Origin: Dehalococcoidia bacterium
GTDB taxonomy: Bacteria > Chloroflexota > Dehalococcoidia > Lucifugimonadales > UBA3495
Assembly: GCA_965262735.1 (NCBI GenBank)
Contig: CBDHFS010000002.1
Coordinates: forward strand, 2,034,802-2,098,801
DNA: 64,000 bases
Direction of reading: 5' to 3'
Part shown: piece after piece, positions 1,515 to 64,000 of the stretch
Numbering within the stretch: the stretch's first letter is position 1
How the letters are laid out: each line of letters starts with the position of its first letter
Program-made: the position numbers and the translations under genes
Notes under the pieces: model-generated
What the model saw: the letters and a program-made list of their open reading frames with translations, nothing else
Databases searched by the model: none
What the model was told of the DNA's origin: nothing

Positions 1515-1972
1515 TGACCTGCTCCCTGTATTCTGCGCTCAAACCCCGGATATGCCGCCACGTATAATAGCGACGCCGGCGGGAAAATAGGTACCGCTCC
1601 CGGCGCCGCCATTATACGTGCCGTCTCTGCGCCCAACAAGGAAACCGTCAGGCGGGCAGAGAATACGCGAAGTCCCTCAATCCCGTAGGTCCGCGGACCT
1701 CGAAGGACAGGGCAATCGCGTTACGATTGTTTTCGCATAACGTGACACTTGCCCCTTTCCAACTCCGGCATCTCCCCGCTACCATATTTCTATTACTTTG
1801 GATTGGCCTGTGTGGGGCTGGCTTGCCGGGAGTTTTCCCGGGCCAATCGCGCTCCCATCGCACTCCCATCGCAAATGGACAGATTGGTTCCGTTGGCTTA
1901 TAGGCGGTGGGTAAAACCGCACCAAATTAGCAGTTCTGCTATACTTAAGCCCACAAACTGGAGACTGCATAA

Positions 1973-2401
1973 ATGTCGAAGGCGGGGCGGCTTCTTGACA
2001 AATACTGGGTTCTTTACTACGTGGTTTATGCAGGATTATCCGTATTTCATCTGATTCAATTATGGAACCGTCTGCCCCAAGAAAGCCGCTCCGACCGTGT
2101 AGTCGCCTTTTTCGGTACAACCGGTGCGCTGTCCGATGCGTTCGGGACCTCGGCTGGCATCGCCGTGTTGTTCCTAGTCTTTGTGGAAGGGATAGGACGT
2201 ATGGCTTTGCTCATTCCGGCAACGATTAAGAGAATCAAGCGGGAAGGGAAGCGGGAAGGGAAGCGGGAAGAACGCAGGGCATCCCGCCAACGCATGAAAG
2301 AGGCGTTGGAACGGTTCGGTGTTGAGCAAGACGGGGTTAAGCATCTTCCGATGACTCCCGAAGTCCAGGCTTTCCTGAATGTCGTTTCAGATCCCGATTG
2401 A
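1973..2401 (+). CDS. hypothetical membrane protein with Lys/Arg/Glu-rich C-terminal tail
   Basis: 142-aa ORF. Hydrophobic N-terminal half (YWVLYYVVYAGLSVFHLI, AGIAVLFLVFVEGIGRMALLIPA), then IKRIKREGKREGKREERRASRQRMKEALERFG. Its 3-prime part is duplicated downstream. Confidence 0.5.
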   Translation: MSKAGRLLDKYWVLYYVVYAGLSVFHLIQLWNRLPQESRSDRVVAFFGTTGALSDAFGTSAGIAVLFLVFVEGIGRMALLIPATIKRIKREGKREGKREERRASRQRMKEALERFGVEQDGVKHLPMTPEVQAFLNVVSDPD

Positions 2402-2634
2402 ACGGAACCTCGTCTTTGTGGAAGGGATAGGACGTATGGCTTTGCTCATTCCGGCAACGATTAAGAGAATCAAGCGGGAAGGGAAACGGGAAGAACGCAG
2501 GGCATCCCGCCAACGCATGAAAGAAGCATTGGAACGGTTCGGTGTTGAGCAAGACGGGGTTAGGAATCTTCCGATGACTCCCGAAGTCCAGGCTTTCCTG
2601 AATGCCGTTTCAGATTCCGATTGAGCGGAACCTC
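2177..2634 (+). repeat. tandem duplication (2 units of ~223-235 bp) covering the 3-prime cassette of the 1973-2401 gene
   Basis: gtctttgtggaagggataggacgtatggctttgctc... starts at 2177 and again at 2412. The copies differ by one 12-bp GCGGGAAGGGAA unit and a few substitutions. Confidence 0.9.
2436..2624 (+). CDS. free-standing tail cassette ORF (62 aa), duplicate of the C-terminus of the upstream gene
   Basis: ATG at 2436 preceded by GGAAGGGATAGG. Encodes MALLIPATIKRIKREGKREERRASRQRMKEALERFGVEQDGVRNLPMTPEVQAFLNAVSDSD. Translation is unproven. Confidence 0.35.
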   Translation: MALLIPATIKRIKREGKREERRASRQRMKEALERFGVEQDGVRNLPMTPEVQAFLNAVSDSD

Positions 2635-2764
2635 TGAGCCAATCCCGTTGCCTACAAGCAAACGGAACCGATAGATTGGCACAAAGTGAGACAGAAAAAA
2701 CTTCCAGGCCCAAAATCGCCGGACCTGTTTCTCTCCCTTCCAGGGGTGACAAAACCAGACATTG

Positions 2765-2844
2765 CCCGGACATTACCGGACAAGACCCGGACAAAAACCC
2801 TCAGCCCCCACGCTCAAATGTCCGAAAATGTCCGCTTTTGTCCG
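2765..2844. promoter_or_regulatory. array of six phased CGGACA half-sites (3 forward, 25-bp spacer, 3 reverse)
   Basis: CGGACA at 2767, 2777 and 2788. TGTCCG at 2819, 2829 and 2839, exactly 10-bp spaced. Function unknown. Confidence 0.4.
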
Positions 2845-3149
2845 ATATTCTCAGCGTTTCCGCCTCCCCAACCGACAATTGGGCTGCGTCGCGGGCCGGC
2901 GGCAGCCAGACAATGATGGCTGGGAGCGGCAACGATTCCCCGGTCTCCCCAAGGGCAGTCTCAAAAACACCGGCGAACTTGAAGGGCGTACCACCTGGAA
3001 GAGGCGCCAATTTTGCGCCCGATTTATAACGCCTTTGCCCTGCTTCCTCGTTGAATCCATGTTGAATCCCTCCAGAGCCGCCTTTATACTGCCCCCCAGT
3101 CTGGAAGACCCGCGCCGCGGGCCCAACGCCCGCAACGGTTGGAGGCAGG

Positions 3150-5856: not shown

Positions 5857-5887
5857 GGAAGTCCTTCGAGGGCCTCGGGACGAACGG
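5857..5887 (+). repeat. REP-like hairpin element
   Basis: ggaagtccttcgagggcctcgggacgaacgg, preceded by a 14-bp tandem duplication gcggactgaYgtac (5827-5854). Confidence 0.7.
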
Positions 5888-9075: not shown

Positions 9076-9225
9076 GTAACAGTTCAGACTTGGTGAGATG
9101 AAGATGAATTGGTTTCAGCCAACTGCGACTATTTTCAGGGGGTTTGGGGGATGAATCCCCCAACGTAACCCAACCCCCATATTCCGCCATCAGCCACTCC
9201 GCTCCCCTCAACCCTGAACAGTTAC
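9076..9225 (+). mobile_element. MITE copy A (GTAACWGTTCAG terminal inverted repeats)
   Basis: Starts gtaacagttcagacttgg and ends ccctgaacagttac. Flanked by the 8-bp direct duplication agcggcgt (9068-9075 and 9226-9233). Confidence 0.85.
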
Positions 9226-10697: not shown

Positions 10698-10928
10698 CCT
10701 TCATCTCTCCTTCATCTCTCCGTCATCTCTCCGTAGAAATTCGCGCCTTCCAAAAAGGTTCAAGAATGTTATGTCGTGGGTCGAATTATACCACCACGTA
10801 CTCAAAACACGAACACCCCAGGGTCATGTCATGCTCTGAAATTTCAGGGGAACCCGTTCGTGGGGAGCTTGTCGGGCCACAGGTGGGCGGCCTTCGAGGG
10901 ACTCAGGAAAAACGGGAGATGTGGGGTG

Positions 10929-10979
10929 CGTTGGGGGATTCATCCCCCAAGCCCCCTGGATAAAAGGGTGCTTTGAGGG
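10929..10979 (+). repeat. GGGGATTCATCCCCC-core repeat (MITE-related subfamily), left copy flanking the amidohydrolase gene
   Basis: cgttgggggattcatcccccaagccccctggataaaagggtgctttgaggg. A direct-orientation partner lies at 12235-12286. Confidence 0.75.
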
Positions 10980-12187: not shown

Positions 12188-12234
12188 GCCAGGAAGTCCT
12201 TTAACGGTCTGGAGGCAAATGGGGGGATGGATTA

Positions 12235-12286
12235 CGTTAGGGGATTCATCCCCCAAGCCCCCTGGATAGAGGGACGCTTCGTGGGG
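12235..12286 (+). repeat. GGGGATTCATCCCCC-core repeat, right copy flanking the amidohydrolase gene
   Basis: cgttaggggattcatcccccaagccccctggatagagggacgcttcgtgggg. Confidence 0.75.
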
Positions 12287-28033: not shown

Positions 28034-28366
28034 ATCGTGTCAAGCGATATTAACTGATGCTTAATATATTTGACGTAAATATAATGGGGGCTTGACCGGC
28101 TTGCAAACGCGGATGCAGGGAAGCCCTTCGAAGGGCCCACGAAGAACGGGGTCAACGAAGAAGACATTCGGGGCAGGGTCTTTTAATTGTTCCCGCAATT
28201 CCTCCGGCAAGCTCAGTGCTGCATTGTCGGACTACCCCAATCCAGGGGGTTTGGGGGATGAATCCCCCAACGTAGCCCCCGTCCCAGAAAATTAAAAGAC
28301 CCTGACATTCTGGGGGGTCGGAGCTTACCCTCTTGGATGCGGGGAATGAAGGAGTTCGAGGGGCGG

Positions 28367-33041: not shown

Positions 33042-33161
33042 GTAACAGTTCAGACTTGGTGAGATGAATTGGTTTCAGCCAACTGCCACTTTTTTCAGGG
33101 GGTTTGGGGCAGGAGGTTTGGGGGATTCATCCCCCGACGTAATCCAACCCCCATATTCCGC
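33042..33161 (+). mobile_element. MITE copy B, 3-prime truncated
   Basis: gtaacagttcagacttggtgagatgaattgg...ccatattccgc, then diverges into tcggtggatcggggc, which resembles the IS1380-like right end. Confidence 0.75.
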
Positions 33162-38945: not shown

Positions 38946-39087
38946 GTAACAGTTCAGATTTGGAGAGATGAATTGGGTTCAGCCAACTGCCACTTTTTCA
39001 GGGGGTTTGGGGGATGAATCCCCCAACGTAACCCAACCCCATATTCTGGCATCAGCCACTCCGCTCCCCTCAACCCTGAACAGTTAC
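38946..39087 (+). mobile_element. MITE copy C
   Basis: gtaacagttcagatttgg...ccctgaacagttac. No clean target duplication. The right end abuts the second repeat family. Confidence 0.8.
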
Positions 39088-41421: not shown

Positions 41422-42666
41422 TCACTCCCGGACGACGCCGGCCTCCACCAGACTATCTATCTCTGCCGCGTCGAAGCCGAACTCCAGCAACACTTCCCGG
41501 CTGTGTTCGCCCAGGCCCGGCGCCCGCCGCCGCACCGACCCCGGCGTTTCCGACAGCTTGACCGGCACCCCGATGTGGCGCAGCGTTCCCAAGGCCGGGT
41601 CTTCCAGGTCAACCAGCATATTCCGCGCTTGAACGTGGGGGTCGGCGTACACCTGGGCCATGTCGTATATCGGCCCGGCGACCACCCCCGCCGCCCCCAG
41701 AGTCTCCAGCCAGTGGCGGGTGTCCCGTTGGCCCAGGGTCTCTTCCAGCAGCGCGGCCAACTCCGCTTCCCGGGCCTTGCGATCGCTAGGGGCGCGGAAA
41801 CGGGCATCATCAATCAGCGCTTCCAACCCCACGGCCCGGCAGAACTGCTCCCAAGTTGTCTGGGTCGCGGCCCCGAGGTTGATGTAGCCGTCTTTCGTCC
41901 GCAAGGCTTGGTAGGGGGCCGAAACCCGGTGCGCCGAACCCAGCGGGCCGGGAACGTCTCCGTTGGCGAAGTAACCGGAGGACTCCCAGATGGTGTAGGC
42001 AATCCCCGCTTCCAGCAGGGAGGTGTCCACCATTTGGCCCTGCCCGGTCTTGAGGGTGTGGATGTAGGCTGCCAGGATGCCGTTGGCCGCCAGCAGCCCT
42101 GCGGAGATGTCGGTGATGGGGACCCCGACCTTGGCCGGGGGTCCGTCGGGAAACCCGGTAATGCTCATCAACCCGCTCATGCCCTAGGCCACCAGGTCAA
42201 ACCCGCCCCGGTTCCGGTAAGGGCCGGTGCTGCCGAAACCGGAAATTGTGCAGTAGACCAGGTTGGGCCTCATGCCGCTGAGCCTCTCGTACCCCAACCC
42301 CAGCCGGTCCATAACCCCCGGACGGAAGTTCTCCGCCACCACGTCCGCCGATTCCAGCAGCCGTAGAAAGACCTCGCGCCCGGTGTCGGCTTGCAGGTTC
42401 AGGGCCAGGCTTCGCTTGTTGCGGTTCAAGGCCAGGAACCCGGCCCCCCAACCGTTGACGAAGGGCGGCCCCATTCGACGGGTATCATCGCCGCCGTTGG
42501 GTCTTTCCACCTTGACGACGTTGGCGCCCAGGTCGGCCAGCATCATGGTGCAAACCGGCCCGGCCATTATCTGGGTTAGGTCCAGCGCCACCACGCCGTC
42601 CAGGGGTCCCTTTGGCATTGCCATCGCTCCACCATCCGACAAAAATCTCGCCTGGAATTCGTGCAA
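41422..42666 (-). pseudogene. family III CoA-transferase (CaiB/BaiF/Frc type) interrupted by one in-frame TAG
   Basis: LDGVVALDLTQIMAGPVCTMMLADLGANVVKVE...GGFDLVA-TAG-GMSGLMSITG. TAG at 42184-42186 replaces the Gln of the conserved D-x-x-x-Q-x-x-S-G motif. Both halves are in the same frame. Confidence 0.8.
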
Positions 42667-42712
42667 CGAGTCTACCAGAACCGGGGATTGCCCGGTGCCA
42701 CTGCGTCATAAA

Positions 42713-42869
42713 GTAACAGTTCAGACTTGGTGAGATGAATTGGTTTCAGCCAACTGCCACTTTTTTCAGGGGTTTGGGGCAGGAGGTTTGAGGGATTCAT
42801 CCCCCAACGTAACCCAACCCCCATATTCCGCCATCAGCCACTCCGCTCCCCTCAACCCTGAACAGTTAC
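42713..42869 (+). mobile_element. MITE copy D
   Basis: Complete ends, flanked by the 8-bp duplication gtcataaa (42705-42712 and 42870-42877). Confidence 0.9.
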
Positions 42870-43019
42870 GTCATAAACTGTCGGCATCATTACCATCGCC
42901 AAGTGCGTGGCCGGCTCCTGGTTCCACGTGGAGCTGTTCGGCATCCCGCCCACAACACCTTCGCCGTCCTTGCCAAGCCTAGGCCCAGGCGGATAAAATT
43001 CCGTAATGAAGGAACAGAT

Positions 43020-43736
43020 ATGACCACAATCAACACAGAATCCGACTTCCTGCGCGCCCTGACGGAACACCCCGAATGGAAGGCAGCCGTCCGCGCCCAA
43101 ATACTGGGCGAAGAATTGCTGCTGCTGCCGGTGCGGTTCAATGCCTTCGTCGAGGAGCAACGGGAGGTGAACACCGAGTTCCGTGAGGCGATCACTGAGA
43201 TCCGGGAATCAGTCGCCGATCTGAAATCATTCAACGTTGAGCAGAAGAAGGCGAACGCCGAGTTCAGAGAGTCAATCGCCGAGTTGAAGGAGTCGACCCA
43301 ACGGATAATCGATGACGTGGGAATCCTCAAAGGAGACCTCGTTGGACGCGCCGCCTGGGACCGCCACCAGGAGATCCTAGACCAGCTTGGTTTCACCCTC
43401 GTAAGAATGCTTACCAAGAATGACCTGAACAACCTGGCCAACCGCAGCGGCACCACCGGCGCAGATCTTCGCAGCTTCTTCCGGGCCGACCTCATCATGG
43501 AGGTCACCGGCGATGATGGCAGCCCCCAATACGTTGCGATGGAAGCCTCATACACCGCCGACGAGCGCGACACCGACCGGGTGTTGCGCAACTGCCGGTT
43601 CATGCAGCATTTCACCAACCGACCGGCCCACCCGGTCATCTCCAGCCTCCGCAACACGCACCATGTCCTGTCCCTGGTCAACAATGGGACAGTCCATTGG
43701 TTCGAGTTGACGGAAAGGGACCTCCACACCGACTGA
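43020..43736 (+). CDS. coiled-coil protein with conserved C-terminal domain (possibly PD-(D/E)xK-like), paralog 1
   Basis: MTTINTESDFLRALTEHPEWKAAVRAQILGEELLLLP, a heptad-rich middle, and C-terminus LGFTLVRMLT...FFRADLIMEV...YVAMEASYT. Near-identical paralog at 49274-49978. Confidence 0.6.
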   Translation: MTTINTESDFLRALTEHPEWKAAVRAQILGEELLLLPVRFNAFVEEQREVNTEFREAITEIRESVADLKSFNVEQKKANAEFRESIAELKESTQRIIDDVGILKGDLVGRAAWDRHQEILDQLGFTLVRMLTKNDLNNLANRSGTTGADLRSFFRADLIMEVTGDDGSPQYVAMEASYTADERDTDRVLRNCRFMQHFTNRPAHPVISSLRNTHHVLSLVNNGTVHWFELTERDLHTD

Positions 43737-43946
43737 TACTGCCCCGCGGCCTCCGATTCCCCCTATTGTGCCGAAGTTATAACGCCACAGCCTCGGGGAA
43801 ATTCTCGATTGACCAATCTCAGGGGCCGGGGTATAACTAGCAAACCGCAACCCGTTGGAACCCGGCAGCCTTCAGTCCCGGTTCATTAGTCCCGGTTCAT
43901 TGTCGGAACGCTCAGCCATCCCGCAGCTGTTCCCAAGAGGTATCTG

Positions 43947-45410
43947 TTGAGTTCTTCCCTTGAGTCCGCCAACCGGCCCCGGGTCAAACGGGACGCCGAC
44001 TACATCTTCCACGAGTTGACCCGCAGCATCTGCCCGGAATGCAAGTCGGTTATTGACGCCCAGATAATCATCAGGGACAACCGGGTTTTCATGCGGAAGC
44101 GATGCCAGACCCACGGTTGGTTTGAAGCAATCATCAGCTCCGACGCGGAGATGTACGTCAACTCCGTCAAGTTCAACAAACCGGGGACCATCCCGCTGGA
44201 ATTCAGTACCGAGGTTAACAACGGCTGTCCCCTGGACTGCGGCCTGTGCCCGGAGCACAAGCAGCACATGTGCCTGGCTCTGGTCGAGGTCAACACTGCC
44301 TGCAACCTGAATTGCCCGGTCTGTTTCGCCAACGCCGGCATTGGCTACAGCCTGACCCTTGAGCAGGTTGAGTCCATGCTGGACCGCCTCGTGGAAACCG
44401 AGGGAGACCCGGAGGTGGTGCAGTTCAGCGGTGGTGAGCCGACAATCCACCCCCAGCTTCCCGAAATGATTCAGGCGGCCAAAGACCGGGGCATCCGGCA
44501 GGTGATGGTCAATACCAACGGCGTCCGCATTGCCAGGGACGACCGGTTCCTGGGGCGGTTGGCCCAACTGGACCCGGTCATCTATTTCCAGTTTGACGGG
44601 CTTAGACCGTCCACCTACCAGGCGATACGGGGCGAAGACCTGCTGGACACCAAGCTGCGCGCCCTGGACCGCATTAACGACGCCGGCCTAACCGCTGTGC
44701 TGGTGGCCGCGGTTGAGCGCGGCATCAACGTTGACGAAGTGGGTGCGATTGTGGAGTTCGGCTTGGAGCATCCGGCGGTGCGTGGCGTCGTGCTTCAGCC
44801 GGTGACCCACGCTGGTCGCCACCCGGATTTTGACCCCATGCAGCGGGTCACCATTCCCGACGTCATCCACGGGATTGTCCAACAGACCGCGGGGCGGTTC
44901 GTCCTGGACGACTTCGTGCCGGTACCCTGCTGTTTCCCCACCTGCCAGGTCAACACCTACGTCTTTGTGGACGGCGATACGGTCGTGCCGCTGCCCCGGC
45001 TATTGAAGATTGACGATTACCTGGACTACATCACCAACCGGGCGCTGCCCCGACTGCCCGATGCCGCCGCGGTACAAAAGGCGCTGGAGGGTCTGTGGTC
45101 GGCCTCGGCGGTGGGCGGGGCCGAAGCTACTGCCCAGCAGTTCCAATGCGCCTGCGGCCCCGGACTGGACCTGCCCGGCGACCTCACCCACCTGAAAGAC
45201 CACGTATTCCAAATTGCCATCAAGGATTTCCTCGACCCCTACACCTTCAACGTCAAGCAGGTGATGAAGTGCTGCGTGGGGGTCCTCGTCCCCGACGGAC
45301 GGGCCATACCTTTCTGCGCCTACAACTCCGTGGGGTATCGCGAGCAGGTCCGGGAGCAGCTTACCCGCGAGCAGTCCCAGCGTCTCCCGGTTGACCGACC
45401 CGCTGGATAA
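43947..45410 (+). CDS. radical SAM protein with N-terminal Cys-rich domain (MJ0619/Tes-like layout)
   Basis: CPECKSV...RCQTHG, then GCPLDCGLCPEHKQHMC, then the radical SAM CNLNCPVCFA and GGEPT. 487 aa. TTG start. Confidence 0.75.
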   Translation: MSSSLESANRPRVKRDADYIFHELTRSICPECKSVIDAQIIIRDNRVFMRKRCQTHGWFEAIISSDAEMYVNSVKFNKPGTIPLEFSTEVNNGCPLDCGLCPEHKQHMCLALVEVNTACNLNCPVCFANAGIGYSLTLEQVESMLDRLVETEGDPEVVQFSGGEPTIHPQLPEMIQAAKDRGIRQVMVNTNGVRIARDDRFLGRLAQLDPVIYFQFDGLRPSTYQAIRGEDLLDTKLRALDRINDAGLTAVLVAAVERGINVDEVGAIVEFGLEHPAVRGVVLQPVTHAGRHPDFDPMQRVTIPDVIHGIVQQTAGRFVLDDFVPVPCCFPTCQVNTYVFVDGDTVVPLPRLLKIDDYLDYITNRALPRLPDAAAVQKALEGLWSASAVGGAEATAQQFQCACGPGLDLPGDLTHLKDHVFQIAIKDFLDPYTFNVKQVMKCCVGVLVPDGRAIPFCAYNSVGYREQVREQLTREQSQRLPVDRPAG

Positions 45411-45428
45411 GCGGAAAGGAGGCGCGTA

Positions 45429-46241
45429 ATGGAACCTGACCGACCGGACCAGACGACCGCGCTGGCCTGCTGCGCCGACCTGTACCAGTCCGACCTGGCG
45501 CGCCTGCTGCTGGGCGATTCCCTGCATCCCGGGGGACTGCGGCTGACGCACCGCCTCGGTACGTTGATGGGCATTCAACCCGATGATTGGGTGGTTGACC
45601 TGGCCTGTGGCCGGGGAATCAGCGGGATGGCCGTTTCCCGGGCATTTCGCTGCAAGGTCGCCGGCATCGAATACGGCGTTGCCGCCGTGGCGGAGGCCCA
45701 CGCCGGAGCTCGGGAAGCGGCAGTCCCGGCCCGCGCCTTCTTCATCAACGCTGACGCCGGGCTGCCGCCCATCAGGCTGTCCAGCGTTGATGCTGTCCTT
45801 TGCGAGTGTTCCATGAGCATCTTCGCCGACCAGCCCGGCGCCATTGTCCAGGCTGCCCGAATGCTCCGGCCAGGAGGGATTCTGGGCTTGAGCGACGTCA
45901 CCGTCAAACCCGGCAGTCTGCCGGACGGCTTCCCCGAAGCTGTCGGCCAGGCGTTGTGTTTGACCGGCGCTCTGGACGTGGCCGGGTATACCCGGTTGGC
46001 GGGGGATGCCGGGCTGCTCCCCGAACGGTCCGAAGACGCTTCGGACGCAATAGCCGACTTGCTGAATGACCTGGAAGGCAAGCTGGGCGCGCTGGCGGCC
46101 TGGCAGTCGCTGGCGGCGGGGACGCTGCCGGTGAAAAAAGAGTGGCTGGACGCGGCCCCAGGCATTATCAATCATCTGCGCCGGCTAATAGACGACGGGG
46201 CGCTGGGATACTGGCTGTTCACGGCCCGGAAGCCGGTCTGA
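45429..46241 (+). CDS. class I SAM-dependent methyltransferase
   Basis: N-terminal ACCADLYQSDLARLLLGDSLHPGG, motif I VVDLACGRGISG, post-I GGILGLSDV. Confidence 0.8.
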   Translation: MEPDRPDQTTALACCADLYQSDLARLLLGDSLHPGGLRLTHRLGTLMGIQPDDWVVDLACGRGISGMAVSRAFRCKVAGIEYGVAAVAEAHAGAREAAVPARAFFINADAGLPPIRLSSVDAVLCECSMSIFADQPGAIVQAARMLRPGGILGLSDVTVKPGSLPDGFPEAVGQALCLTGALDVAGYTRLAGDAGLLPERSEDASDAIADLLNDLEGKLGALAAWQSLAAGTLPVKKEWLDAAPGIINHLRRLIDDGALGYWLFTARKPV

Positions 46242-46470
46242 ACCGGCGGAAAGCGTGGTCATCCTGGGCGACGGCGGCAAGGAAGGATGGACCGGCACGG
46301 CGTTGGCTGAATCCGGGGATAATGAGGTTGTGTTATGTATATTCTATCGCCGCAAATTGGTATTATGTAGTCCAAGCTGGATGCCAAGGTTCCTTGGGTC
46401 CCAACATGGGGGGCCACCACAATCCGGTCCAATACCGCTGGATGTGACTGAGATGTATGAGATGTAATTG

Positions 46471-47160
46471 ATGGGTAGCGAAGACTTCCTGCTCCTGCAA
46501 AAGCTGACCTTCTCCCTGCTGCTGGGATACCTTCTCGGGTCGGTGCCTTTTGCCCACCTGGCGGGCCGGCTGAAAGGCGTGGACATCTTCAGCACGGGCA
46601 GCCAGCGGGCTGGCACCGCCAACATATTCTGGAACGTAAGCCGTCGGGTCGGGGTGATGGTGTTAGCTGGCGACGTGGCCAAAGGCTCCCTCGCCGTATT
46701 CGCCGCCCAGCAAATGAACTGTCCGGTCCCCCTGTTGGTAATGGCAGGGGCCGCCGCCGTACTGGGACACTGGAAATCACTGTTCACCGGCTTCAAGGGC
46801 GGCGATGGGATGGCGACGCTGCTGGGAGTGACCGCCACGTTAATCCCCGTCCTGGCCGTGCCGGGCATCGCCCTGGGGGTTACAGCTGTGGCGCTGGCCT
46901 GGAAGTCCCATTACCGTTCTGGCGTGGGGATCGCCGTCTGCTATACGCTGGTGCTGCTGCTGAGTCTGGTAATTTTGCAGCGCGACCAGCAGTTGACCCT
47001 GGGACTGACTGCCCTGGCCGCGCTGGTGCTGACCCACAACATTGTTGTCCACCGGCGGGTCGCCGCGTCGGGCGTGGAGCCCCGCGATGACTTGGACGAC
47101 TTGGAGCTGGACCTGACCGTGGACGACGATCTGGAGTCCGCTGTACCCGAACAACCCTAG
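46471..47160 (+). CDS. divergent PlsY-family (glycerol-3-phosphate acyltransferase-like) membrane protein
   Basis: LLLGYLLGSVPFAHLAG, but the usual GSGNxGATN motif reads GSQRAGTANI. A second, more canonical plsY lies at 53576-54256. Confidence 0.6.
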   Translation: MGSEDFLLLQKLTFSLLLGYLLGSVPFAHLAGRLKGVDIFSTGSQRAGTANIFWNVSRRVGVMVLAGDVAKGSLAVFAAQQMNCPVPLLVMAGAAAVLGHWKSLFTGFKGGDGMATLLGVTATLIPVLAVPGIALGVTAVALAWKSHYRSGVGIAVCYTLVLLLSLVILQRDQQLTLGLTALAALVLTHNIVVHRRVAASGVEPRDDLDDLELDLTVDDDLESAVPEQP

Positions 47161-47171
47161 CCGGGTGGAAG

Positions 47172-48347
47172 TTACCCCCGGCGCTGCCGCCGCCGCTTCA
47201 ACTCATCCAGGTCCAACACCCATTTTAGTTGCTCGTCTTTGGCGGCCTCGGCCCGCCAGCCTGGTTGGAGTCTCTCGGCGGTTTCCAGGTATTGGAGCGC
47301 CTCGTCCAGCCGTCCCAGTCTGGAGCATAGGCGCGCTGCGTTGAAGTAGGCCACCGAAAACCTGGGCATCGCCTGCATCGCCGCCGCGTATTCCCGCATC
47401 GCCCCATCATCATCGCCCAACGCCTCCAGCGCCGCGCCCCGGTTGCTGAAAACCTCGGCGAAGTCCGGCTGCAAAGCCAGCGCCTTTTCGTAGTCCTGCA
47501 AAGCCCGGCGGTAATCGCCCAGCGCATCGAACCCCAGCCCCCGGTTGTTCCATGCCTCGGCATCCTCGGGCCGCAGGGCAATCACCTGGGAGTAATCGTC
47601 CACGGCCTCTTCGACATGCCCCAGATGGTAGCGGGTGCGGGCCCGGTTGAACCAGGCATTGGCGTTGTCCGGGTCCAGGAGGACGGCCCGGCTGTAATCG
47701 CCGATGGCGGCTTTGTGCTCGGAAAGTTCGTCCAGCGACGCCCCCCGGTTCAGGAAGGCATTGGACAGGTCTGGCCTCATTCCGATAACCAGGTCGAACT
47801 GCGCCACCGCTTCTTCGTGCCAACCCAGCTTGCCCAGCACGACGCCCCGGTTGTAGTGCGCCCGCAGAAAGCCGGGGTCGAGATTGATTGCCGCAGAGTA
47901 ATCGGACACCGCCCTTTCGCCCTGGCCCAGGTCGTCGTGGGCGTTGCCCCGCTGATAGTAGACCTGCGGCAGCGCGGCGTCCGATTCTTGCAGCCGGTCG
48001 AGCGCCAGGTCGAAATGCTGCACGGCTTCATCGGGCCGCCGCAACCTCATGCAGCACAGGCCCAGGTTGAATCGGGCCGCGGAATTGCTCTCGTCCGCTT
48101 CCAGCAACCCCGTGTATACCTCCGCCGCATCGTGGTGCCGGCCCACTGCGAAGCAGGCGTTGCCATATACCAGGCCCCGGCCCGCTTCCGGGAGGGGTCC
48201 CAGGGAATCCAGCATATCCAGCGCCCGTTCCTTGTTGACGCCGGTCAGGCCGGCCCCCCGGGGAGGCGGGGTGACGTAGGAGTCGCCGATCCCGCTCTCG
48301 ACCAGCAGTTCGGCCAATCGTTGATGAAGGTCATATAATGGTTGCAT
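47172..48347 (-). CDS. tetratricopeptide (TPR) repeat protein
   Basis: Repeated A..Y..A..L.P....A..N.G motifs throughout 391 aa. Confidence 0.85.
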   Translation of the reverse strand: MQPLYDLHQRLAELLVESGIGDSYVTPPPRGAGLTGVNKERALDMLDSLGPLPEAGRGLVYGNACFAVGRHHDAAEVYTGLLEADESNSAARFNLGLCCMRLRRPDEAVQHFDLALDRLQESDAALPQVYYQRGNAHDDLGQGERAVSDYSAAINLDPGFLRAHYNRGVVLGKLGWHEEAVAQFDLVIGMRPDLSNAFLNRGASLDELSEHKAAIGDYSRAVLLDPDNANAWFNRARTRYHLGHVEEAVDDYSQVIALRPEDAEAWNNRGLGFDALGDYRRALQDYEKALALQPDFAEVFSNRGAALEALGDDDGAMREYAAAMQAMPRFSVAYFNAARLCSRLGRLDEALQYLETAERLQPGWRAEAAKDEQLKWVLDLDELKRRRQRRG

Positions 48348-48388
48348 CGCCGGTTCGCTCGCTCGCTGTGCTGGTTCCGTCGTCCGCC

Positions 48389-48937
48389 TTACAGGGTGGA
48401 AACCCGGCCCCCGCCCATTTCCGGTTTCAATGCGTTCTGGGCGACGGCCAGGGCGGTGTAGTAGGCAATCGTCAATGTGAGGTCAACCACGCCCGTAACG
48501 CCGAGCAAGTCCTGGGCGGCGGCAAAGGTCTCATCGGAAACCTCTTTGTCCCGCAGCGATTCTTGCACAAACCGGGCGATGACAACCTCGCCGCCGCTGA
48601 GACCTTCCGGCGCCTGCCAGGTGCGGATGCTTTCGATGGCGCCGTCGCTGATGCCTGCCCGCGCCGCCGCTACCGAGTGCCCAGTCCACTCGATGCCGCT
48701 ATTCCACTCGCGCGCGACCAGGATAATCGCCAACTCCTTCAGCGCGTCGGGCATCGCGCTCTGGAACCGGAGCTGCGCTCCCATGGACGTCAAGTGTCCC
48801 GCCGCCTGCGGACTGTTGAGCAAGGCGCGGAACTGCAACCCAACCTCGTCGGTGTTCCGGTCCTGCCTTATTTGGTCGTAGATGCGCTGTCCGTCTGCAT
48901 CCAACTCTTCTCTCGAAACATAGGGAACTCTCGCCAT
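48389..48937 (-). CDS. carboxymuconolactone decarboxylase (CMD/AhpD-like) family protein
   Basis: MARVPYVSREELDADGQRIYDQI..., paralog of 16222-16770. Confidence 0.65.
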   Translation of the reverse strand: MARVPYVSREELDADGQRIYDQIRQDRNTDEVGLQFRALLNSPQAAGHLTSMGAQLRFQSAMPDALKELAIILVAREWNSGIEWTGHSVAAARAGISDGAIESIRTWQAPEGLSGGEVVIARFVQESLRDKEVSDETFAAAQDLLGVTGVVDLTLTIAYYTALAVAQNALKPEMGGGRVSTL

Positions 48938-49034
48938 ATCATCACCTTTCACTCGGCTTTCGGCCAGTTCCGGCCCAACGGCCGCCTATAGAATATCACG
49001 GCGGCAGGCGGCAGGCGACAGGGAAACGTCACCA

Positions 49035-49192
49035 GTAACAGTTCAGAGTTAGGGAGGTGAATTGTTTTCAGGCAAGGCTTTCAGGCAACTGCCAATTCTT
49101 TCCAGGGGGTTTGGGGGATGCATCCCCCAACGTAACCCAACCCCCATATTCCGCCATCGCCCCCTCTCATCCCCTCAACACCGAACAGTTAT
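49035..49192 (+). mobile_element. MITE copy E (diverged, degenerate right end cagttat)
   Basis: gtaacagttcagagttagg...ccgaacagttat. Shares an extra aaggctttca insertion with copy F. Confidence 0.75.
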
Positions 49193-49273
49193 GTCAAGGC
49201 AATCGTATTATAACTTCGGCGCGTTGGGGGATAATCGGAGGTTGCGGGGAAACACAGGAGGCGGGAGCAGCAA

Positions 49274-49978
49274 TCAGTCGGTGTGGAGGTCCCTTTCCGT
49301 CAACTGGAACCAGTGGACCGTCCCATCGTTGACCAGGGGCTGGACATGGTGGGTGTTGCGGAGGCTGGAGATGACCGCGTGGGCCGGGCGGTCGGTGAAC
49401 TGCTGCATGAACTGGCAGTTGCGCAACACCCGGTCGGTGTCGCGCTCGTCGGCGGTGTATGAGGCTTCCATCGCAACGTACTGGAGGCTGCCATCATCGC
49501 CGGTAACCTCCATGATGAGGTCAGCCCGGAAGAAGCTGCGGAGACTGGCTCCGGCGATGCCGGTGGTGTGGCTGCGGTTGGCCAGGTTGTTCAGGTCGTT
49601 CTTGGTGAGCATTCTGACGAGAGTGAAACCAAGCTGGTCAAGGATGTCCTGATGGCGGTCCCAGGCAGCGCGTCCAACGAGGTCTCCCTTGAGAATCCCC
49701 ATGTCATCAAGCATGCGTTGGTTGAACTCCCGCTGCTCGCCGTTGAACTGTTCCTCCCTGACGTTGATCTCCTTCAGCTCGGCGACTGATTCCCTGAGCT
49801 CGGCGATTGAGTCCCGGAACTCAGTGTTCGCCTCTCGCTGCTCCTCAACGAAGGCATTGAACCGCACCGGCAGCATCAGCAGTTCTTCGCCCAGTATCTG
49901 GGCGCGAACAGCTGCCTTCCATTCGGGGTGTTCCGTCAGGGCGTGCAGAAAGTCGGATTCCGTGTTGATTGTGGTCAT
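49274..49978 (-). CDS. coiled-coil protein with conserved C-terminal domain, paralog 2
   Basis: MTTINTESDFLHALTEHPEWKAAVRAQILGEELLMLP... The upstream ~65 bp is also shared with paralog 1. Confidence 0.6.
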   Translation of the reverse strand: MTTINTESDFLHALTEHPEWKAAVRAQILGEELLMLPVRFNAFVEEQREANTEFRDSIAELRESVAELKEINVREEQFNGEQREFNQRMLDDMGILKGDLVGRAAWDRHQDILDQLGFTLVRMLTKNDLNNLANRSHTTGIAGASLRSFFRADLIMEVTGDDGSLQYVAMEASYTADERDTDRVLRNCQFMQQFTDRPAHAVISSLRNTHHVQPLVNDGTVHWFQLTERDLHTD

Positions 49979-50044
49979 ATCTATTCCTTCGTTATGAAAT
50001 TTTATCCGCCTGGGCTTGGACTTGGCAAGGGCGGACCGAAGCCG

Positions 50045-50214
50045 GTAACAGTTCAGACTTGGTGAGATGAATTGGTTTCAGCCAAGGCTTTCATCCAACC
50101 GCCACTTTTTTAGGGGGTTTGGGGCAGGGGGTTTGGATGATTCATCCCCCAACGTAACCCAACCCCCATATTCCGCCATCAGCCACTCCGCTCCCCTCAA
50201 CCCTGAACAGTTAC
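50045..50214 (+). mobile_element. MITE copy F
   Basis: gtaacagttcagacttggtgagatgaattgg...ccctgaacagttac. Confidence 0.85.
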
Positions 50215-50220
50215 CGTCAC

Positions 50221-50766
50221 CAGGGCAATCACGTTTTAAATTGTAACTGCACGACTACTCAGTGTTCTGGCGTCCGTCTCTCAACAAAACCCTGGAAATG
50301 CACTCCATCACTGGAAATAGGGCTGGCTGGATGGACCAGGAGACCCAACGATATGCAAGTGGTGCACAAAAATGCCGGTCATTTGAAAGGATTATCAATT
50401 CCTTTGATACCGGTTATGCCTCGCAGTTAACCCGCGATTCCCCCAACTGACGCCCCGCCTCTTGCCAACCACGGCAACCCTTCCTTACCATAACCCCAGA
50501 CCTGCATGACGCCTCCCAACCCGCCGCGGTCCAGGGGCAAATGACATTAAATGGCATAAAATGACACGATTTCCAGGAGTCCCAACTGGTTTCAGCCGGA
50601 CCCCGCCCACCGTAACCGTTCAGTCTCGAGAGGATATACCGGCTAACCAGGCCAATTTCCAATGCCTGATTTCCAATGGTAGCAAGCGTTTCGAGGGTTT
50701 TTCGAGTAGCAACACGCCATGAGATCGAGTAATTGTCCAGTTACGAATTAAAACGCGATTGCCCTG
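50221..50766. mobile_element. ~550-bp element bounded by 29-bp imperfect inverted repeats (second non-autonomous element type)
   Basis: cagggcaatcacgttttaaattgtaactg (50221-50249) vs the reverse complement of 50738-50766 (26/29 by eye). It contains a copy of the iteron-bearing repeat family. A third copy of the end motif is at 1706-1740. Confidence 0.55.
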
Positions 50767-50976
50767 AAAACGTCACCGGCATCAGGCAATCGCCAGGCTT
50801 TCTTATCCACCGGACCTGCTCAGGGCCAGGAGGACGCCTGGTCACAACAAGCGGCAGATGTTGTGATCCCCCGCTGTTCGTTGAATCTTCAGGCGGCGGC
50901 TCTTACAATTAGGCCACGGCAATGGGGCCGCCGGCGCCCGCCGGAAGCAATCTTGGGCAAATTTGAGGGAGTTATC

Positions 50977-51216
50977 GTGACGCAAGCCAGCCAGGCCGAG
51001 ACCATCATCTACACCCATCCCGACTGCGCCTTTTCCGCGGCGGCCAAAATGGAATACCGGCGCAACAAGACGGCGTACACCGAGGTGGACGTTTCCAAGC
51101 AGCCCGACAAGATTCCCGACCTGCTGGCCCTGACCAACGGGGAAAGAGTCACGCCGGTCATCGTCGAAAACGGTCAGGTCAGCATTGGGTTCAAGGGCGG
51201 CAATTGAGAATTCTAG
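50977..51216 (+). CDS. glutaredoxin-like protein, candidate selenoprotein with Sec three residues from the C-terminus
   Basis: GTG start with a GAGGGA RBS. IIYTHPDCAFSAAAKMEY...VDVS...ERVTPVIVENGQVSIGFKGGN-TGA-GAA-TTC-TAG. As a conventional ORF it would end at 51207. Confidence 0.5.
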
Positions 51217-57823: not shown

Positions 57824-57966
57824 GTAACAGTTCAGACTTGGTGGGATGAATTGGTTTCAGCCAACTGCCATTTTTTGCAGGGGGTTTGGGGGATGAATCC
57901 CACAACGTAATCCAACCCCCATATCCCGCCATCAGCCACTCTGCCCCCTCAACCCTGAACAGTTAC
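57824..57966 (+). mobile_element. MITE copy G
   Basis: Flanked by the 9-bp duplication ggcccttcg (57815-57823 and 57967-57975). Confidence 0.9.
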
Positions 57967-59107: not shown

Positions 59108-62100
59108 GTGCGAAGGCCGCCAATGCGCCTTCCGGTAAGTTTGGGGTGGAAAGCCGGGTTGCTGCTGGCCCTGGCTATCCAGTCCTTTGCACCCCAGGCG
59201 TCAGTCTCGGTCAACGCCCAAGCCGTCCAGGACGTTGGCGTCACCGCCATCGAACTCCCCACCGGCCCGGTCAACCAGGGCGACACCGCAGAGATAAAGG
59301 TGACTATCGAAAACCTGGGTTCCTCCACCGCTTCCGTCATGGTAATTCTTAATTATCTTGATGCAGATTACACGGCCGCAGGTGTCGGGCAAACGATGCA
59401 AGACGTTGCGGCAGGCCAGACCTCGAAAGCGTCCTTCTCCTGGGACACCACCGGCGTCCCCCTCGGCAGCTACATTTTCCAGGCAGTAGCGTTGTCGGGT
59501 GAAAACCTCGACGGCGAGGACGGCAACTATGAGAATAACTCCCTGATTTCAACAAGCTCGGTCACCATTCGCACCCCGCCGCCCTACGCTGTTGCCGTCA
59601 CCGCCGTCGATGTCCCCGCCGGGCCAGCAATCCAGGGTGAAACCGTGGACGTGGAGGTGACCGTCAAGAATCAGGGGACTTCCGATGCCAACGCCAAGAT
59701 AACGCTTTTGTACGTTCCGGCCGAGGGACAACCGGGAATCGCCGCCGAGAAAACCGTTGCCATCGCCGCCGGAGCCACCGAAACGGTGACCCTGTCCTGG
59801 GACACATCCGGCACCACCCTGGGCGTCTACACCATCAGGGCCGGCGCCACCCTGGTTGAGGACAGCAGCGTTGCCCATTTCTTGATTTCGACAACTTCCA
59901 TTACCATTGTCACCCCGCCTCCGTATGCCGTTGCCGTCACCGCCGTAAAGGCTGCCAGCGCCACAGCAATCCAGGGGGCCACCGTGGACGTGGACGTGAC
60001 CGTCAAGAATCTGGGGACATCCGACGCCAACGCCAAGATAACGCTTTTGTACGTCCCCGCCGAGGGCCAACCGGGAATCGCCGCCGAGAAAACCGTTGCC
60101 ATCGCCGCCGGAGCCGCCGAAACGGTCACCCTATCGTGGGACACATCCGACTCGACGCCGGGCGTCTACACCATCAGGGCCGGCGCAACCCTGGTTGAGG
60201 ACACTGACGTTGCCCATTTCCTGGTTTCGACAACTTCCATCACCATTGTCACCCCGCCTCCGTATGCCGTTGCCGTCACCGCCGTAAAGGCTGCCAGCGC
60301 CACGGTAACCCAGGGGGCCACCGTGGACGTGGACGTGACCGTCAAGAATCTGGGGACATCCGACGCCGACGCCAAGATAACGCTTTTGTACGTTCCCACC
60401 GAGGGCCAACCGGGAATCGCCGCCAACAAAACCGTTGCTATCGCCGCCGGAGCCGCCGAAAAAGTCACTCTATCCTGGGATACTTCCGACTCGACGCCGG
60501 GCGTCTACACCATCAGGGCCGGCGCCACTTTGGTTGAGGACACCAGCGTTGCCGACTTTCGGGACGCGGCATCCACCGTCACCATTAGCACCCCGCCTCC
60601 CTATGCCGTTGCCGTTACCGCCGTGGATGTTGCCAGCGCCACGGCAACCCAGGGTGAAGTCGTGGACGTGGAGGTGACCGTCAAGAATCTGGGGACATCC
60701 GACGCCAACGCCAAGCTAACCCTCCTGTACGTTCCCGCCCAGGGCCAACCGGGAATCGCCGCCGAGAAAACCGTTGCCATCGCCACTGGAGCCGCCGAAA
60801 CGGTCACCCTATCGTGGGACACATCCGACGCTACGCCGGGTGTCTATACTATCAGGGCTGGCACCACCCTGGTTGAGGACGCTGACGTTGCCCATTTCCT
60901 GGTTTCGACAACTTCCGTCACCATTAGCGCCCCGACCTATGGCGTTTCCATCACCGCCTTTGATGTCCCATCCGGTCCGGCAACCCAGGGCTATGTCGTT
61001 GACGCGGACGTGACGGTCAAGAACCTCGGTTCAGTCGCGGCAATGTTCACGGTGACGCTCTTTGACCAACCCGCCGGTGGCACGGAAGGGACTGCGGACG
61101 AGGAAACCGTCGAGATTGCCCCGCCGCCACCAAGAAAGTCACCCTATCTTGGGACACATCCAACGCTACGCCGGGCGCCCACACCTTCAGGGCCGGCGTC
61201 ACTTTGGTTGATGACACCAACGTTTCCGACTTCCTGGACTCGGCAGCTACCATCACCATTAGCCCGCCGCCTTATGCTGTTGCCATCACCGCCGTTGAGG
61301 TTGCCAGCGCAACGGCAATCCAGGGGGCCACCGTGGAGGTGGAAGTGACCGTCGAGAATCAGGGGACATCCGACGCCAACGCCAAGATAACGCTTCTGTA
61401 CGTTCCCGCCGAGGGCGAACCGGGAATCGCCGCCAAGAAAACCGTTGCCATCGCCGCTGGAGCCACCGAAACGGTCACCCTATCCTGGGATACATCCGGC
61501 ACCACCCTCGGCGCTTACACCATCAGGGCCCGCGCAACCCTGGTTGAGGACAGCACCGTTGCCGATTCCTTGGACGGGGCATCCACCATCACCATTAGCG
61601 CTCCACCGCCCTATGCCGTTGCCGTCACCGCCGTTGAGGTTGCCAGCGCAACGGTAATCCAGGGGGAAACCGTGGACGTGGAGGTGACCGTCAAGAATCT
61701 GGGGACATCCGACGCTAACGCCATGATAACGCTTCTGTACGTCCCCGCCGAGGGCCAACCGGGAACCGCCGCCGAGAAAACCGTTGCTATCGCCGCCGGA
61801 GCCGCCGAAACGGTCACTCTATCGTGGGACACAGCCGACGCCAACCCCGGCGCCCACACCATCAGGGCCGGCGCCACCCTGGTTGAGGACACCAATGTTT
61901 CTGACTACCGGGACGCGGCATCCACCATCACCATTAGCGCCCTGACCTATGGCGTTTCCATCACCGCCTTTGATGTCCCATCCGGTCCGGCAACCCAGGG
62001 CTATGTCGTTGACGCGGACGTGACGGTCAAGAACCTCGGTTCAGTCGCGGCAAGGTTCACGGTGACGCTTTTTGACCAACCCTCCGGTGGCACGGAAGGA

Positions 62101-64000
62101 ACTGCGGACGAGGAAACCGTTGAGATTGCCGCCGGCGCCACCAAGACGGTCACCCTATCCTGGGACACATCCGACGCTACGCCGGGCGCCCACACCTTCA
62201 GGGCCGGCGTCACTTTGGTTGATGACACCAACGTTTCCGACTCCCTGGACTCGGCAGCCATCATCACCATCAGCGTCCCACCGCCCTACGCCGTTGCCGT
62301 CACCGCCGTCGATGTCCCCGCCGGGCCAGTAACCAGGGGGGACACCGTGGACGTGGGCGTGACCGTCGAGAATCAGGGAACCTCCGACGCCAACGCCAAG
62401 ATAACGCTCCTGTACGTCCCCGCCGAGGGCGAACCGGGAATCGCCGCCGAGAAAACCGTTGCTATCGCCGCCGGAGCCACCGGAACGGTCACCCTGTCCT
62501 GGGATACTTCCGACGCCGCCCTCGGCGCACACACCGTCAGGGCCGGCGTCACCCTGGTTGAGGACACCAACGCTGCCGACTCCCGGGACGCGGTATCCCC
62601 CATCACCATTATCCTACCGCCTTATGCCGTTGCCGTCACCGCCGTCGATGTTCCCGCCGAGCCGGTAGCCCAGGGGGAAACCGTCGACGTGGTCGTGTCC
62701 GTCGAGAATCAAGGGACCTCCAACGCCGCCGCCATGATAACGCTTCTGTACGTCCCCGCCGAGGGCGAACCGGGAACCGCCGCCGAGAAAACCGTTGCCA
62801 TCGCCGCCGGCTCCACCGAAACGGTCACCCTGTCCTGGGATACTTCCGACGCCGCCCCCGGCGCCTACACCATCAGGGCCGGCGCCACCCTGGTTGAGGA
62901 CAGCAATGTTTCCGACTCACAGGACGCGGTATCCACCATCACCATTAGCCCACCGCCCTACGCCGTTGCCGTCACCGCCGTGGACATAGCCAGCGCGACC
63001 GTCACCAAGGGCGACACCCTGGATGTGGACGTGACCGTGGAGAATCGGGGGACCTCCGACGCCAACGCCGTGGTCACGGTTCTGTACGTTCCCACCGACG
63101 GCCAACCGGGAATCGCAGCTGCGGAAACTGTCGCCATCGCCGCAGGGGAGTCGGAGACCACTACCCTGTCCTGGAATACCTCCGAGGCCACGCCCGGCGC
63201 CTACACCATTAGGGCCAGCGTCACCCTGGTTGAGGACACCGACGTTTCCGATTCCCGGGACGCGTTGTCCACCATCACCATTGGGACCCCAACCTATGGC
63301 GTCGTCGTAACCTCCGTTGATGTCCCCACCGGGCAGGCAACCCAGGGCGACACGGTGGACATACTTGTGGCCATTGAAAACCGCAGCTCGGTCGCGGCAA
63401 TGTTTGAGGTGACGCTCTTTTACCAACGCGCAGGTGGTCAGGAAGGAATCGCCGCTAAGGAAACCTTCAAAATCACCGCTGGCTTTACCAAGGGTCTCAC
63501 CATGTCCTGGGATACATCCGGCGTTACGCCTGGCGTTTACCAGGTCGGCGCCAAGGTGATGTTGGTGGGAGTGGCAGGCGTTGACGATTCCCGGATTTCT
63601 GAAACGTCCATCACTATCATCGCCCCCGTAACCTACGGCGTCTCCATCACCGCCATTGATGTCCCCGCCGGGCCGGTAGCCCAGGGGGAAACCGTTGACG
63701 TTGACGTGACCATTGAGAACAGCAGCTCAGTCGCGGCAATGTTCGCAGTGACGCTCTTTTACCAACCCGCCGGTGGCCAGGAAGTAACCGCAGCAGAGGA
63801 AACCGTCGAAATCGCCGCTGGCGCTATCGAAACGGTCACCCTGAATTGGGATATATCCGACGCCACCTTCGGCGTGTACACCATCAGGGCCAAGGCGATA
63901 CTAGCGGACGTGGCAGGTGTTGACGACGTTGCCGATTCCCGGATTTCTGAAACGTCCATCACCATCAGCGCCCCCGTAACCTACGGCGTCGCCGTCACCG
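59108..64000 (+). CDS. giant secreted protein made of tandem CARDB-like domains (partial, runs off the window; one frameshift near 61120)
   Basis: Signal peptide MRLPVSLGWKAGLLLALAIQSFAPQASVSVNA. At least 15 repeats of ~113 aa (PPPYAVAVTAVDVP.GP..QGETVDVEVTVKNQGTSDANAKITLLYVP....TVAIAAGATETVTLSWDTS....YTIRAGATLVED). The frame changes from 2 to 1 at 61118-61122. Confidence 0.8.
59576..64000 (+). repeat. coding tandem repeat, period ~339 bp, at least 13 units
   Basis: Repeat starts at 59576, 59915, 60254 and so on. Neighbouring units are near-identical at the DNA level. A 3-unit block (60925-61938) is re-duplicated at 61939-62950. Confidence 0.9.

Follow-up and report, generated by a model that had tools for sequence, protein, structure and literature searches.

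A gene lying between two miniature inverted-repeat elements in a Dehalococcoidia genome, and its very probable transfer as a single unit

We analysed a 64,000-nucleotide stretch of DNA from a Dehalococcoidia bacterium (assembly GCA_965262735.1, contig CBDHFS010000002.1, positions 2,034,802 to 2,098,801), referred to below as the window. Beside its RecA operon, positions 49035-50214 hold a block of 1,180 base pairs (bp) composed of a gene for a protein of 234 amino acids (aa), which we call the cargo, and two copies, E and F, of a short repeat. [quoted passage not shown] The block abuts an older non-coding element, X. The features of this locus are as follows.

49027-49034, + strand: left target-site duplication of the whole block, CGTCACCA, directly outside E
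49035-49192, + strand: MITE E, 158 bp, a divergent copy with right end GTTAT, downstream of the cargo gene
49193-49200, + strand: inner flank of E, GTCAAGGC, a copy of E's own 8-bp duplication brought from the donor locus
49195-49213, + strand: right terminal inverted repeat of the cargo cassette, CAAGGCAATCGTATTATAA, common to all paralogs
49274-49978, - strand: cargo gene, 234 aa, with a predicted N-terminal helical domain, coiled coil (residues 36-107) and C-terminal PD-(D/E)xK fold
49999-50028, - strand: promoter-like TTGCCA-18-TAAAAT, in a leader conserved in all paralogs and kept inside the block
50037-50044, + strand: inner flank of F, CGAAGCCG, a copy of F's own 8-bp duplication brought from the donor locus
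50045-50214, + strand: MITE F, 170 bp, 66 bp upstream of the cargo start codon
50215-50222, + strand: right target-site duplication of the whole block, CGTCACCA, directly outside F
50221-50766, no strand assigned: element X, non-coding, 546 bp, with 19-bp inverted ends CAGGGCAATCaCGTTTTAA at 50221-50239 and 50748-50766

An original prediction, made from the letters of the window, had proposed that the two MITEs mobilised the gene as a composite unit. Its coordinates for E, F, the open reading frame (ORF) and CGTCACCA were right to the base, and the inner ends of the MITEs do lack CGTCACCA: the inner flanks, GTCAAGGC and CGAAGCCG, are unrelated to the outer 8-mer. Given the base composition of the window, a match of 8 out of 8 at fixed positions has a chance of ~2e-5. 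The block sits between CGTCAC and CA, that is, between the left duplication of X and the first two bases of X; X is the older of the two, and the block entered its left edge. A perfect 9-bp duplication, AAACGTCAC, flanks X itself (49024-49032 and 50768-50776). The arrangement of the flanks might instead be a coincidence, two MITEs having come to lie beside a resident gene, with CGTCACCA recurring by chance or within a local repeat. In keeping with this, CGTCACC occurs 33 times in the window where ~14 occurrences are expected, and a third copy lies close by, at 50771-50777. This third copy had been put forward as a possible refutation of the composite unit, but it is simply the right half of the 9-bp duplication of X, and the objection fails.

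We then turn to relatives, for which related loci were retrieved by exact look-ups of window proteins in public assemblies (labels of the form L020 denote related loci or strains). The E-gene-F arrangement was seen in at least 8 independent assemblies. In a related strain, L020 (ERZ25766727, a contig of 1.18 megabases (Mb)), the RecA region has the same gene order, with flanks 98-99% identical to the window, and reads ...GACAGGGAAA-CGTCACCA-GGGCAATCACGTTTTAA... (also given as GACAGGGAAA-CGTCACCA-GGGCAATCACG). Thus, a single 8-mer is present, with no MITE and no gene, and a MITE profile found no match in the whole L020 locus. This is the empty site with a single CGTCACCA that the original prediction had suggested looking for in relatives. 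A history of two independent MITE insertions at the RecA locus was also considered and is ruled out by this gene-less site with its single 8-mer.

A protein one residue off that of the window (P0002) is encoded in three unrelated contexts, namely the RecA locus, locus 2 and locus 3. Locus 2, which has an ABC-transporter gene on one side and a Fer4/CCG gene on the other, was seen in L002, L007 and L013 (the last with a 262-aa variant). The whole block is present there, up to the outer ends of both F and E, and 1178 of 1180 positions are identical between the window and L007; E is 100% identical to the locus-2 E of both L002 and L007, and F is 99.4% identical to the L007 copy. A single contig of ERZ25069145 carries both the RecA locus and locus 2. 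Each MITE at locus 2 has an 8-bp duplication of its own: F lies between CGGCTCCG and CGGCTTCG, and E, in gene orientation, between GCCTTG(A/G)C (this left flank also given as GCCTTGAC) and GCTCTGGC. The sequence upstream of F at this locus is collinear with the leaders of other paralogs. In a more divergent relative, L030, locus 2 carries the gene with neither MITE, a single CCGCTTCG being present at the position of F and a single GCTCGGTC at that of E. The separate duplications at locus 2, together with the single 8-mers in L030, therefore show that F and E arrived there by two separate simple insertions. Since the inner flanks in the window are these same locus-2 duplications, brought along with the block, the direction of movement was from locus 2 to the RecA locus.

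The claim that one target duplication around the whole unit of 1.18 kilobases (kb) is the mark of en-bloc transposition is thus borne out by the empty site in L020, the donor at locus 2 and the MITE-free locus in L030. We conclude that 49035-50214 is very probably a composite transposon of two MITEs and a gene, moved in one piece. Coincidence, by comparison with what it would have to produce (an empty site with one 8-mer and no gene, inner flanks that are those of locus 2, and an 8/8 match, with the third CGTCACC already explained by X), is next to impossible.

The history that we propose for the composite transposon has three steps. The gene would first have been resident in a cassette at locus 2, a state that is directly seen. 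Next, F would have inserted 66 bp upstream of the start codon and E 80 bp after the stop codon, in separate events that each duplicated 8 bp; this state, too, is directly seen. Lastly, the 1,180-bp block would have entered the site between CGTCAC and CA at the edge of the older element beside the RecA operon, with 8 bp duplicated. Here the insertion can be read from the junctions, and for its mechanism we infer that a transposase supplied in trans acted on the far ends of F and E rather than on both ends of a single MITE. The donor copy persists, as both loci occur on one contig, and the transfer would therefore have been either copy-and-paste transposition or followed by repair of the donor.

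A third site, locus 3, beside an abhydrolase gene in L009 and L010, favours this account in that the gene is again enclosed by F and, at the same position, an E-like copy, without the cassette leader. Several observations weigh against it. At locus 3 no flanking duplication is readable, because the right end is scrambled among three adjacent MITEs. At the RecA locus itself, MITE-MITE recombination is also at work: in L001, L005 and L006 the right end is rearranged, the outer half of E being replaced by canonical MITE sequence without a 13-bp insertion (~10787-11000 in L001), and after this chimeric E', 59 bp of the left end of X are repeated. The variant looks like the product of unequal crossover with another MITE copy, the partner allele of which was not seen. 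Neither a transposase nor an autonomous parent insertion sequence (IS) bearing GTAACAGTTCAG ends turned up when the window, ~370 kb of related loci and metagenome contigs were searched. Finally, L020 may in principle represent precise excision and not a site that was never occupied; even so, the block would still behave as one discrete unit.

Recombination could also have built the block. If F recombined with E at locus 2, a circle of the gene and one MITE would be freed, and a RecA-dependent crossover of the circle into a MITE resident at CGTCACCA would give the same outer signature, with one duplication, inherited from the resident MITE, around MITE-gene-MITE. That MITEs recombine here is clear from the chimeric E' of L001, L005 and L006 and from the scrambled triplet at locus 3. 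However, the circle itself would bring just one hybrid MITE, yet E and F are both essentially unchanged at the new site, and the sole unoccupied allele seen, that of L020, has no resident MITE. Since E and F, with a mutual identity of only 79%, are both intact at both loci, simple recombination through a single MITE is ruled out, and we regard passage through a circle as highly unlikely.

E and F are members of a true MITE family. The repeat is non-coding and 142-170 bp long, and the window holds 7 copies, all on the + strand. Besides E and F these are:

9076-9225, + strand: MITE A, with its own duplication AGCGGCGT
33042-33161, + strand: MITE B, truncated
38946-39087, + strand: MITE C
42713-42869, + strand: MITE D, a simple insertion, flanked by its own duplication GTCATAAA at 42705-42712 and 42870-42877
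57824-57966, + strand: MITE G, with its own duplication GGCCCTTCG

The copies begin with GTAACAGTTCAG and end with CTGAACAGTTAC; read as a terminal inverted repeat, 11 of the first 12 positions of these two ends agree in most copies (11 of the 14 counted). No ORF is conserved among the copies, and their size fits the 50-500 bp range of MITEs. Solo copies A, D and G, and one in L002 (duplication GCCGCCCT), have perfect target-site duplications of 8 bp, once 9 bp, and the repeat is therefore a genuine MITE. Sites without the MITE were found in relatives for D (L027, L028), for a copy in L025 (L029) and, as described above, for F and E (L030). The insertion shared by E and F (aaggctttca) had been taken as private to this pair. 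It is not: a third copy, L002:1782-1920, carries the same 13-bp insertion, which is a marker of a subfamily.

As to the enzyme that moves the MITE, in 367 kb of related DNA GTAACAGTTCAG-like ends occurred in MITE copies alone, and a scan of metagenome contigs with an 18-base MITE end returned 16 chance matches, no MITE among them. IS66 elements have ends of 20-30 bp that start with GTAAGCG, and 8-bp duplications (PMC11946415). The 8-bp duplication agrees with that of the MITE; the MITE ends, GTAACAG, share only GTAA, the inverted repeat is only ~12 bp, and no IS66-type transposase was seen. From the GTAA ends and the 8-bp duplications, we would tentatively name an IS66-type enzyme as the transposase.

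Other observations concern the distribution of this and other repeats. The shared orientation of all 7 MITE copies in 64 kb has a probability of ~1.6% by chance, and copies may have been inserted or kept with a bias towards one strand or replication direction. Three MITE copies stand in a row downstream of the unit at locus 3 (L009:10769-11371, L010:3458-4151), none with a readable duplication; the spacing of the triplet differs between L009 and L010, and the site is locally a hotspot at which MITEs insert and recombine. A further family of short repeats, GTCCTTCGAGGGCCTCGGGACGAACGGG, is represented in the window by 8 copies, at 5861, 7402, 9307, 10889, 10968, 25366, 28123 and 32032. Some of these adjoin isolated GGGGGATGAATCCCCC hairpin modules (10919-10966, 12213-12268, 28241-28279), and this module also forms the core of the MITE. 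At 59233-63975, 12-14 tandem repeats of 336/339 bp lie inside a very large gene whose orthologs give weak matches to the CARDB domain, suggesting a giant repetitive surface protein.

The gene itself was already packaged before the MITEs reached it. When the paralog loci are aligned with the MITEs removed, homology across four paralog loci starts at CAGGGCAATCGCGTTATAA, ~230 bp upstream of the ATG, and ends at an inverted copy of CAGGGCAATCGCGTTATAA, ~45-65 bp after the stop codon. These 19-bp inverted repeats bound a cassette for every paralog, with the passenger gene inside and no transposase. The window contains one such paralog in addition to the cargo gene:

43020-43736, + strand: paralog, 238 aa, in its own cassette, with the right inverted repeat at 43777-43795

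Its protein is 82% identical to the cargo, and hence not near-identical as had been stated. The inverted cassette motif also bounds X, a 1.3-kb segment at window positions 1708-3042, and short segments in L009 and L010. The 1.3-kb segment (bounds: inverted CAGGGCAATCGCG) contains a 142-aa ORF at 1973-2401 and a 163-bp tandem duplication, 95% identical (2249-2411 and 2472-2634), and its interior is related to L009:3053-3575.

ISAs1-type elements have ends that start with CAGGG and make duplications of ~10 bp (PMC11946415), a type with which CAGGG ends and duplications of 9-10 bp agree; X is probably an ISAs1-type MITE. In L020, an ISAs1-type IS is present with perfect 18-bp ends CAGGGTCTTTTAATTGTC and a 10-bp duplication, GCGTCAGTTG; its end has nothing but CAGGG and TTTTAATTGT in common with those of the cassettes. 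The X of L020 holds two full insertion sequences (L020:2359-3579 and L020:3796-4878), one of them this ISAs1-type IS and the other IS903-like, of the IS5 family, with ends GGCTTTGTTGAATGAATGG. In L001 and L020, X lacks ~151 bp (window 50597-50747), a piece with GTAAC...GTTAC-like ends.

These ends raise the question of whether the gene came to the RecA locus by means of its own 19-bp repeats CAGGGCAATCGCGTTATAA and an ISAs1-type transposase, with the MITEs as passengers or later arrivals. The homology of the paralogs starts and stops exactly at the inverted repeats, X has the same ends together with a perfect 9-bp duplication, ISAs1 ends likewise start with CAGGG (PMC11946415), and an ISAs1-type IS with the end CAGGGTCTTTTAATTGTC is present in L020. 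Movement of this kind probably accounts for the older spread of the gene family. The junctions at the RecA locus, however, refute it for the move in question: the block lacks the left repeat of the cassette and ~165 bp of leader, its boundaries are the outer MITE ends to the base, and its duplication is 8 bp, as for the MITE, not 9-10 bp. Transfer by the cassette ends is accordingly extremely unlikely here.

From their sequences, the gene family looks like a passenger of mobile insertion cassettes. No duplication was found flanking the gene cassettes at locus 2, at locus 4 or at the window paralog, and a clean one was found only for the non-coding X; at locus 5 a possible CGCCGCCC(C) repeat flanks the cassette, in low-complexity sequence. 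Among the relatives compared, no presence/absence polymorphism of gene cassettes was seen, and a relative of 4.4 Mb has the cassettes of the paralog-1, 4 and 5 loci in syntenic positions. Since the cassettes are syntenic in relatives, their spread is old. A scan of genome contigs with the cargo protein returned only two Dehalococcoidia loci, 45% identical, with no MITE and no obvious flanking repeats; the same scan of metagenome contigs gave no match.

Where MITEs and cassettes meet, they do so repeatedly at the cassette ends. In the cassette of the window paralog, the left inverted repeat is interrupted by MITE D, which L027 and L028 lack at this locus. At locus 2, the right repeat has MITE E at its outer edge. 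In L025, an independent MITE lies one base from the equivalent position at locus 5, with a duplication of its own (CCTCGGCG/CCTTGGCG), its empty site being found in L029; and the composite block itself entered the edge of the left repeat of X. An automated test of the proximity of MITEs to cassette motifs, restricted to the window, gave P ~0.006 (2/7 copies), a crude figure in that its simple pattern misses the motif interrupted by D and the gapped motif adjacent to B. As MITEs are found at these ends in several cases, we conclude that the MITE repeatedly targets cassette ends, which suggests that one mobile element prefers the ends of another as its target.

This preference also explains why MITE D lies beside the window paralog. 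The adjacency that the original prediction pointed out is real, but mobilisation of the paralog by D is not upheld, D being an independent simple insertion. The wider association of paralogs with MITEs held in part: MITEs do lie near several paralogs, but the locus-4 paralog has no MITE nearby and others have MITE-free versions. At three other loci the paralogs are of long standing and keep their syntenic positions in relatives; one lacks a nearby MITE, and for two, relatives have versions free of MITEs.

What the unit carries was examined by structure prediction. An AlphaFold model of the cargo protein, built on an alignment of 44 relatives (mean predicted local distance difference test score, pLDDT, of 89), has short helices at the N-terminus, then one long helix (36-107), and at the C-terminus an alpha/beta domain with the core alpha-beta-beta-beta-alpha-beta. 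For this domain, the top match in Foldseek was NucS/EndoMS (E 4e-4, prob 1.00), followed by MspJI, Can2 and BamHI, and Mrr-like and restriction-endonuclease models matched it in a viral structure library. The original guess of a PD-(D/E)xK domain is thus supported at the level of the predicted fold. Invariant residues of the C-terminal domain are D153, E157, E171, S173, T175, D177, R179, R183, R186 and N187. In the model, D153 (start of strand 2) and E171 (strand 3) lie on the expected strands, the canonical Lys position is taken by an invariant Ser (S173, in E171-x-S173), and the invariant R179, R183 and R186 lie near S173.

Sequence searches of Pfam, NCBIfam, PADLOC, PHROGs and the Protein Data Bank (PDB) with the protein and its 44 relatives returned only coiled-coil noise, and Rfam had no meaningful match in 42500-51000. 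A profile search at E <= 1e-3 recovered 3,405 cluster representatives, a number that falls to 436 at E <= 1e-30; among their source annotations there was no informative family name, the only label seen being 'hypothetical protein'. The coiled coil varies in length by heptad-like units, in a family of ~190 to 440 aa. At the same locus 2, the difference between 234 aa (L002/L007) and 262 aa (L013) amounts to four FNxxQEQ-type heptads.

On the strength of the model, the cargo is most likely a DNA-binding or DNA-cleaving protein. The block keeps the promoter-like site, a ribosome-binding site and an intact frame, features which suggest that the cargo is probably expressed. Nothing found in this analysis shows the cargo taking part in its own movement. 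It is a long shot that the cargo acts on its own cassette ends CAGGGCAATCGCGTTATAA as a new selfish nuclease or non-DDE transposase, the breaks or complexes so formed spreading the cassette and attracting MITEs; if it did, its action there would be the reason why no fewer than four MITEs inserted independently into cassette ends or only a few bases away.

Pairs of bacterial MITEs have been suspected of moving genes, mostly on the basis of structure and on resistance plasmids. Here, the variation among uncultured relatives keeps every stage: the gene without MITEs, the gene with two MITEs, the empty target and the filled target. It is thus shown directly that two diverged non-autonomous elements can make an ordinary chromosomal gene mobile. 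The analysis also draws attention to a large unannotated family (~3,400 cluster representatives) that combines a coiled coil with a restriction-endonuclease-like domain and that, in this lineage, is packaged in IS-like cassettes.

In its core fold, as predicted, with an invariant Asp on strand 2 and an invariant Glu on strand 3, the cargo resembles NucS/EndoMS, MspJI and the nuclease domain of Can2. It differs from these nucleases in having no sequence similarity to solved structures or Pfam families, in having Ser for Lys, and in its N-terminal helical domain and variable-length coiled coil. The cassettes, for their part, recall mobile insertion cassettes (MICs) such as MIC231 of Bacillus cereus and the TnXax1-derived MICs with TALE and effector genes in Xanthomonas (PMC4337579). 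In both, transposase-less passenger genes lie between IS-type inverted repeats, which here have ISAs1-like CAGGG ends. Unlike the MICs, clean duplications were found here only for X, no IS with identical ends was found, the cassettes are syntenic, and the recent move used MITE ends and not cassette ends.

As in IS-flanked composite transposons (Tn5, Tn10, Tn6645), the outermost ends were used and one target duplication surrounds the unit, but, unlike those, neither flanking element encodes a transposase. The closest parallel comes from Acinetobacter, where class 1 integrons are described between two identical 439-bp MITEs and MITE-297 pairs are said to flank a 76-kb mer region (PMC6382973, PMC10969869; Gillings 2009 and Domingues 2011 cited there). 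Like those units, the block has two direct-orientation non-autonomous elements around a transposase-less cargo, an arrangement called 'comparable to a composite transposon', with a transposase presumed to act in trans. Unlike in those units, the cargo here is a single chromosomal gene of an uncultured bacterium where there it is resistance genes on plasmids, and the MITEs are only 79% identical. Moreover, the donor, the MITE-free donor and the empty target have all been recovered here, so that the direction of movement and the unit that moved are shown and not inferred from structure alone. MITE-flanked cargo units are thus already known; what is distinctive in the present case is the complete natural record, the divergence of the two MITEs and a cargo that was already nested in an IS-like cassette.

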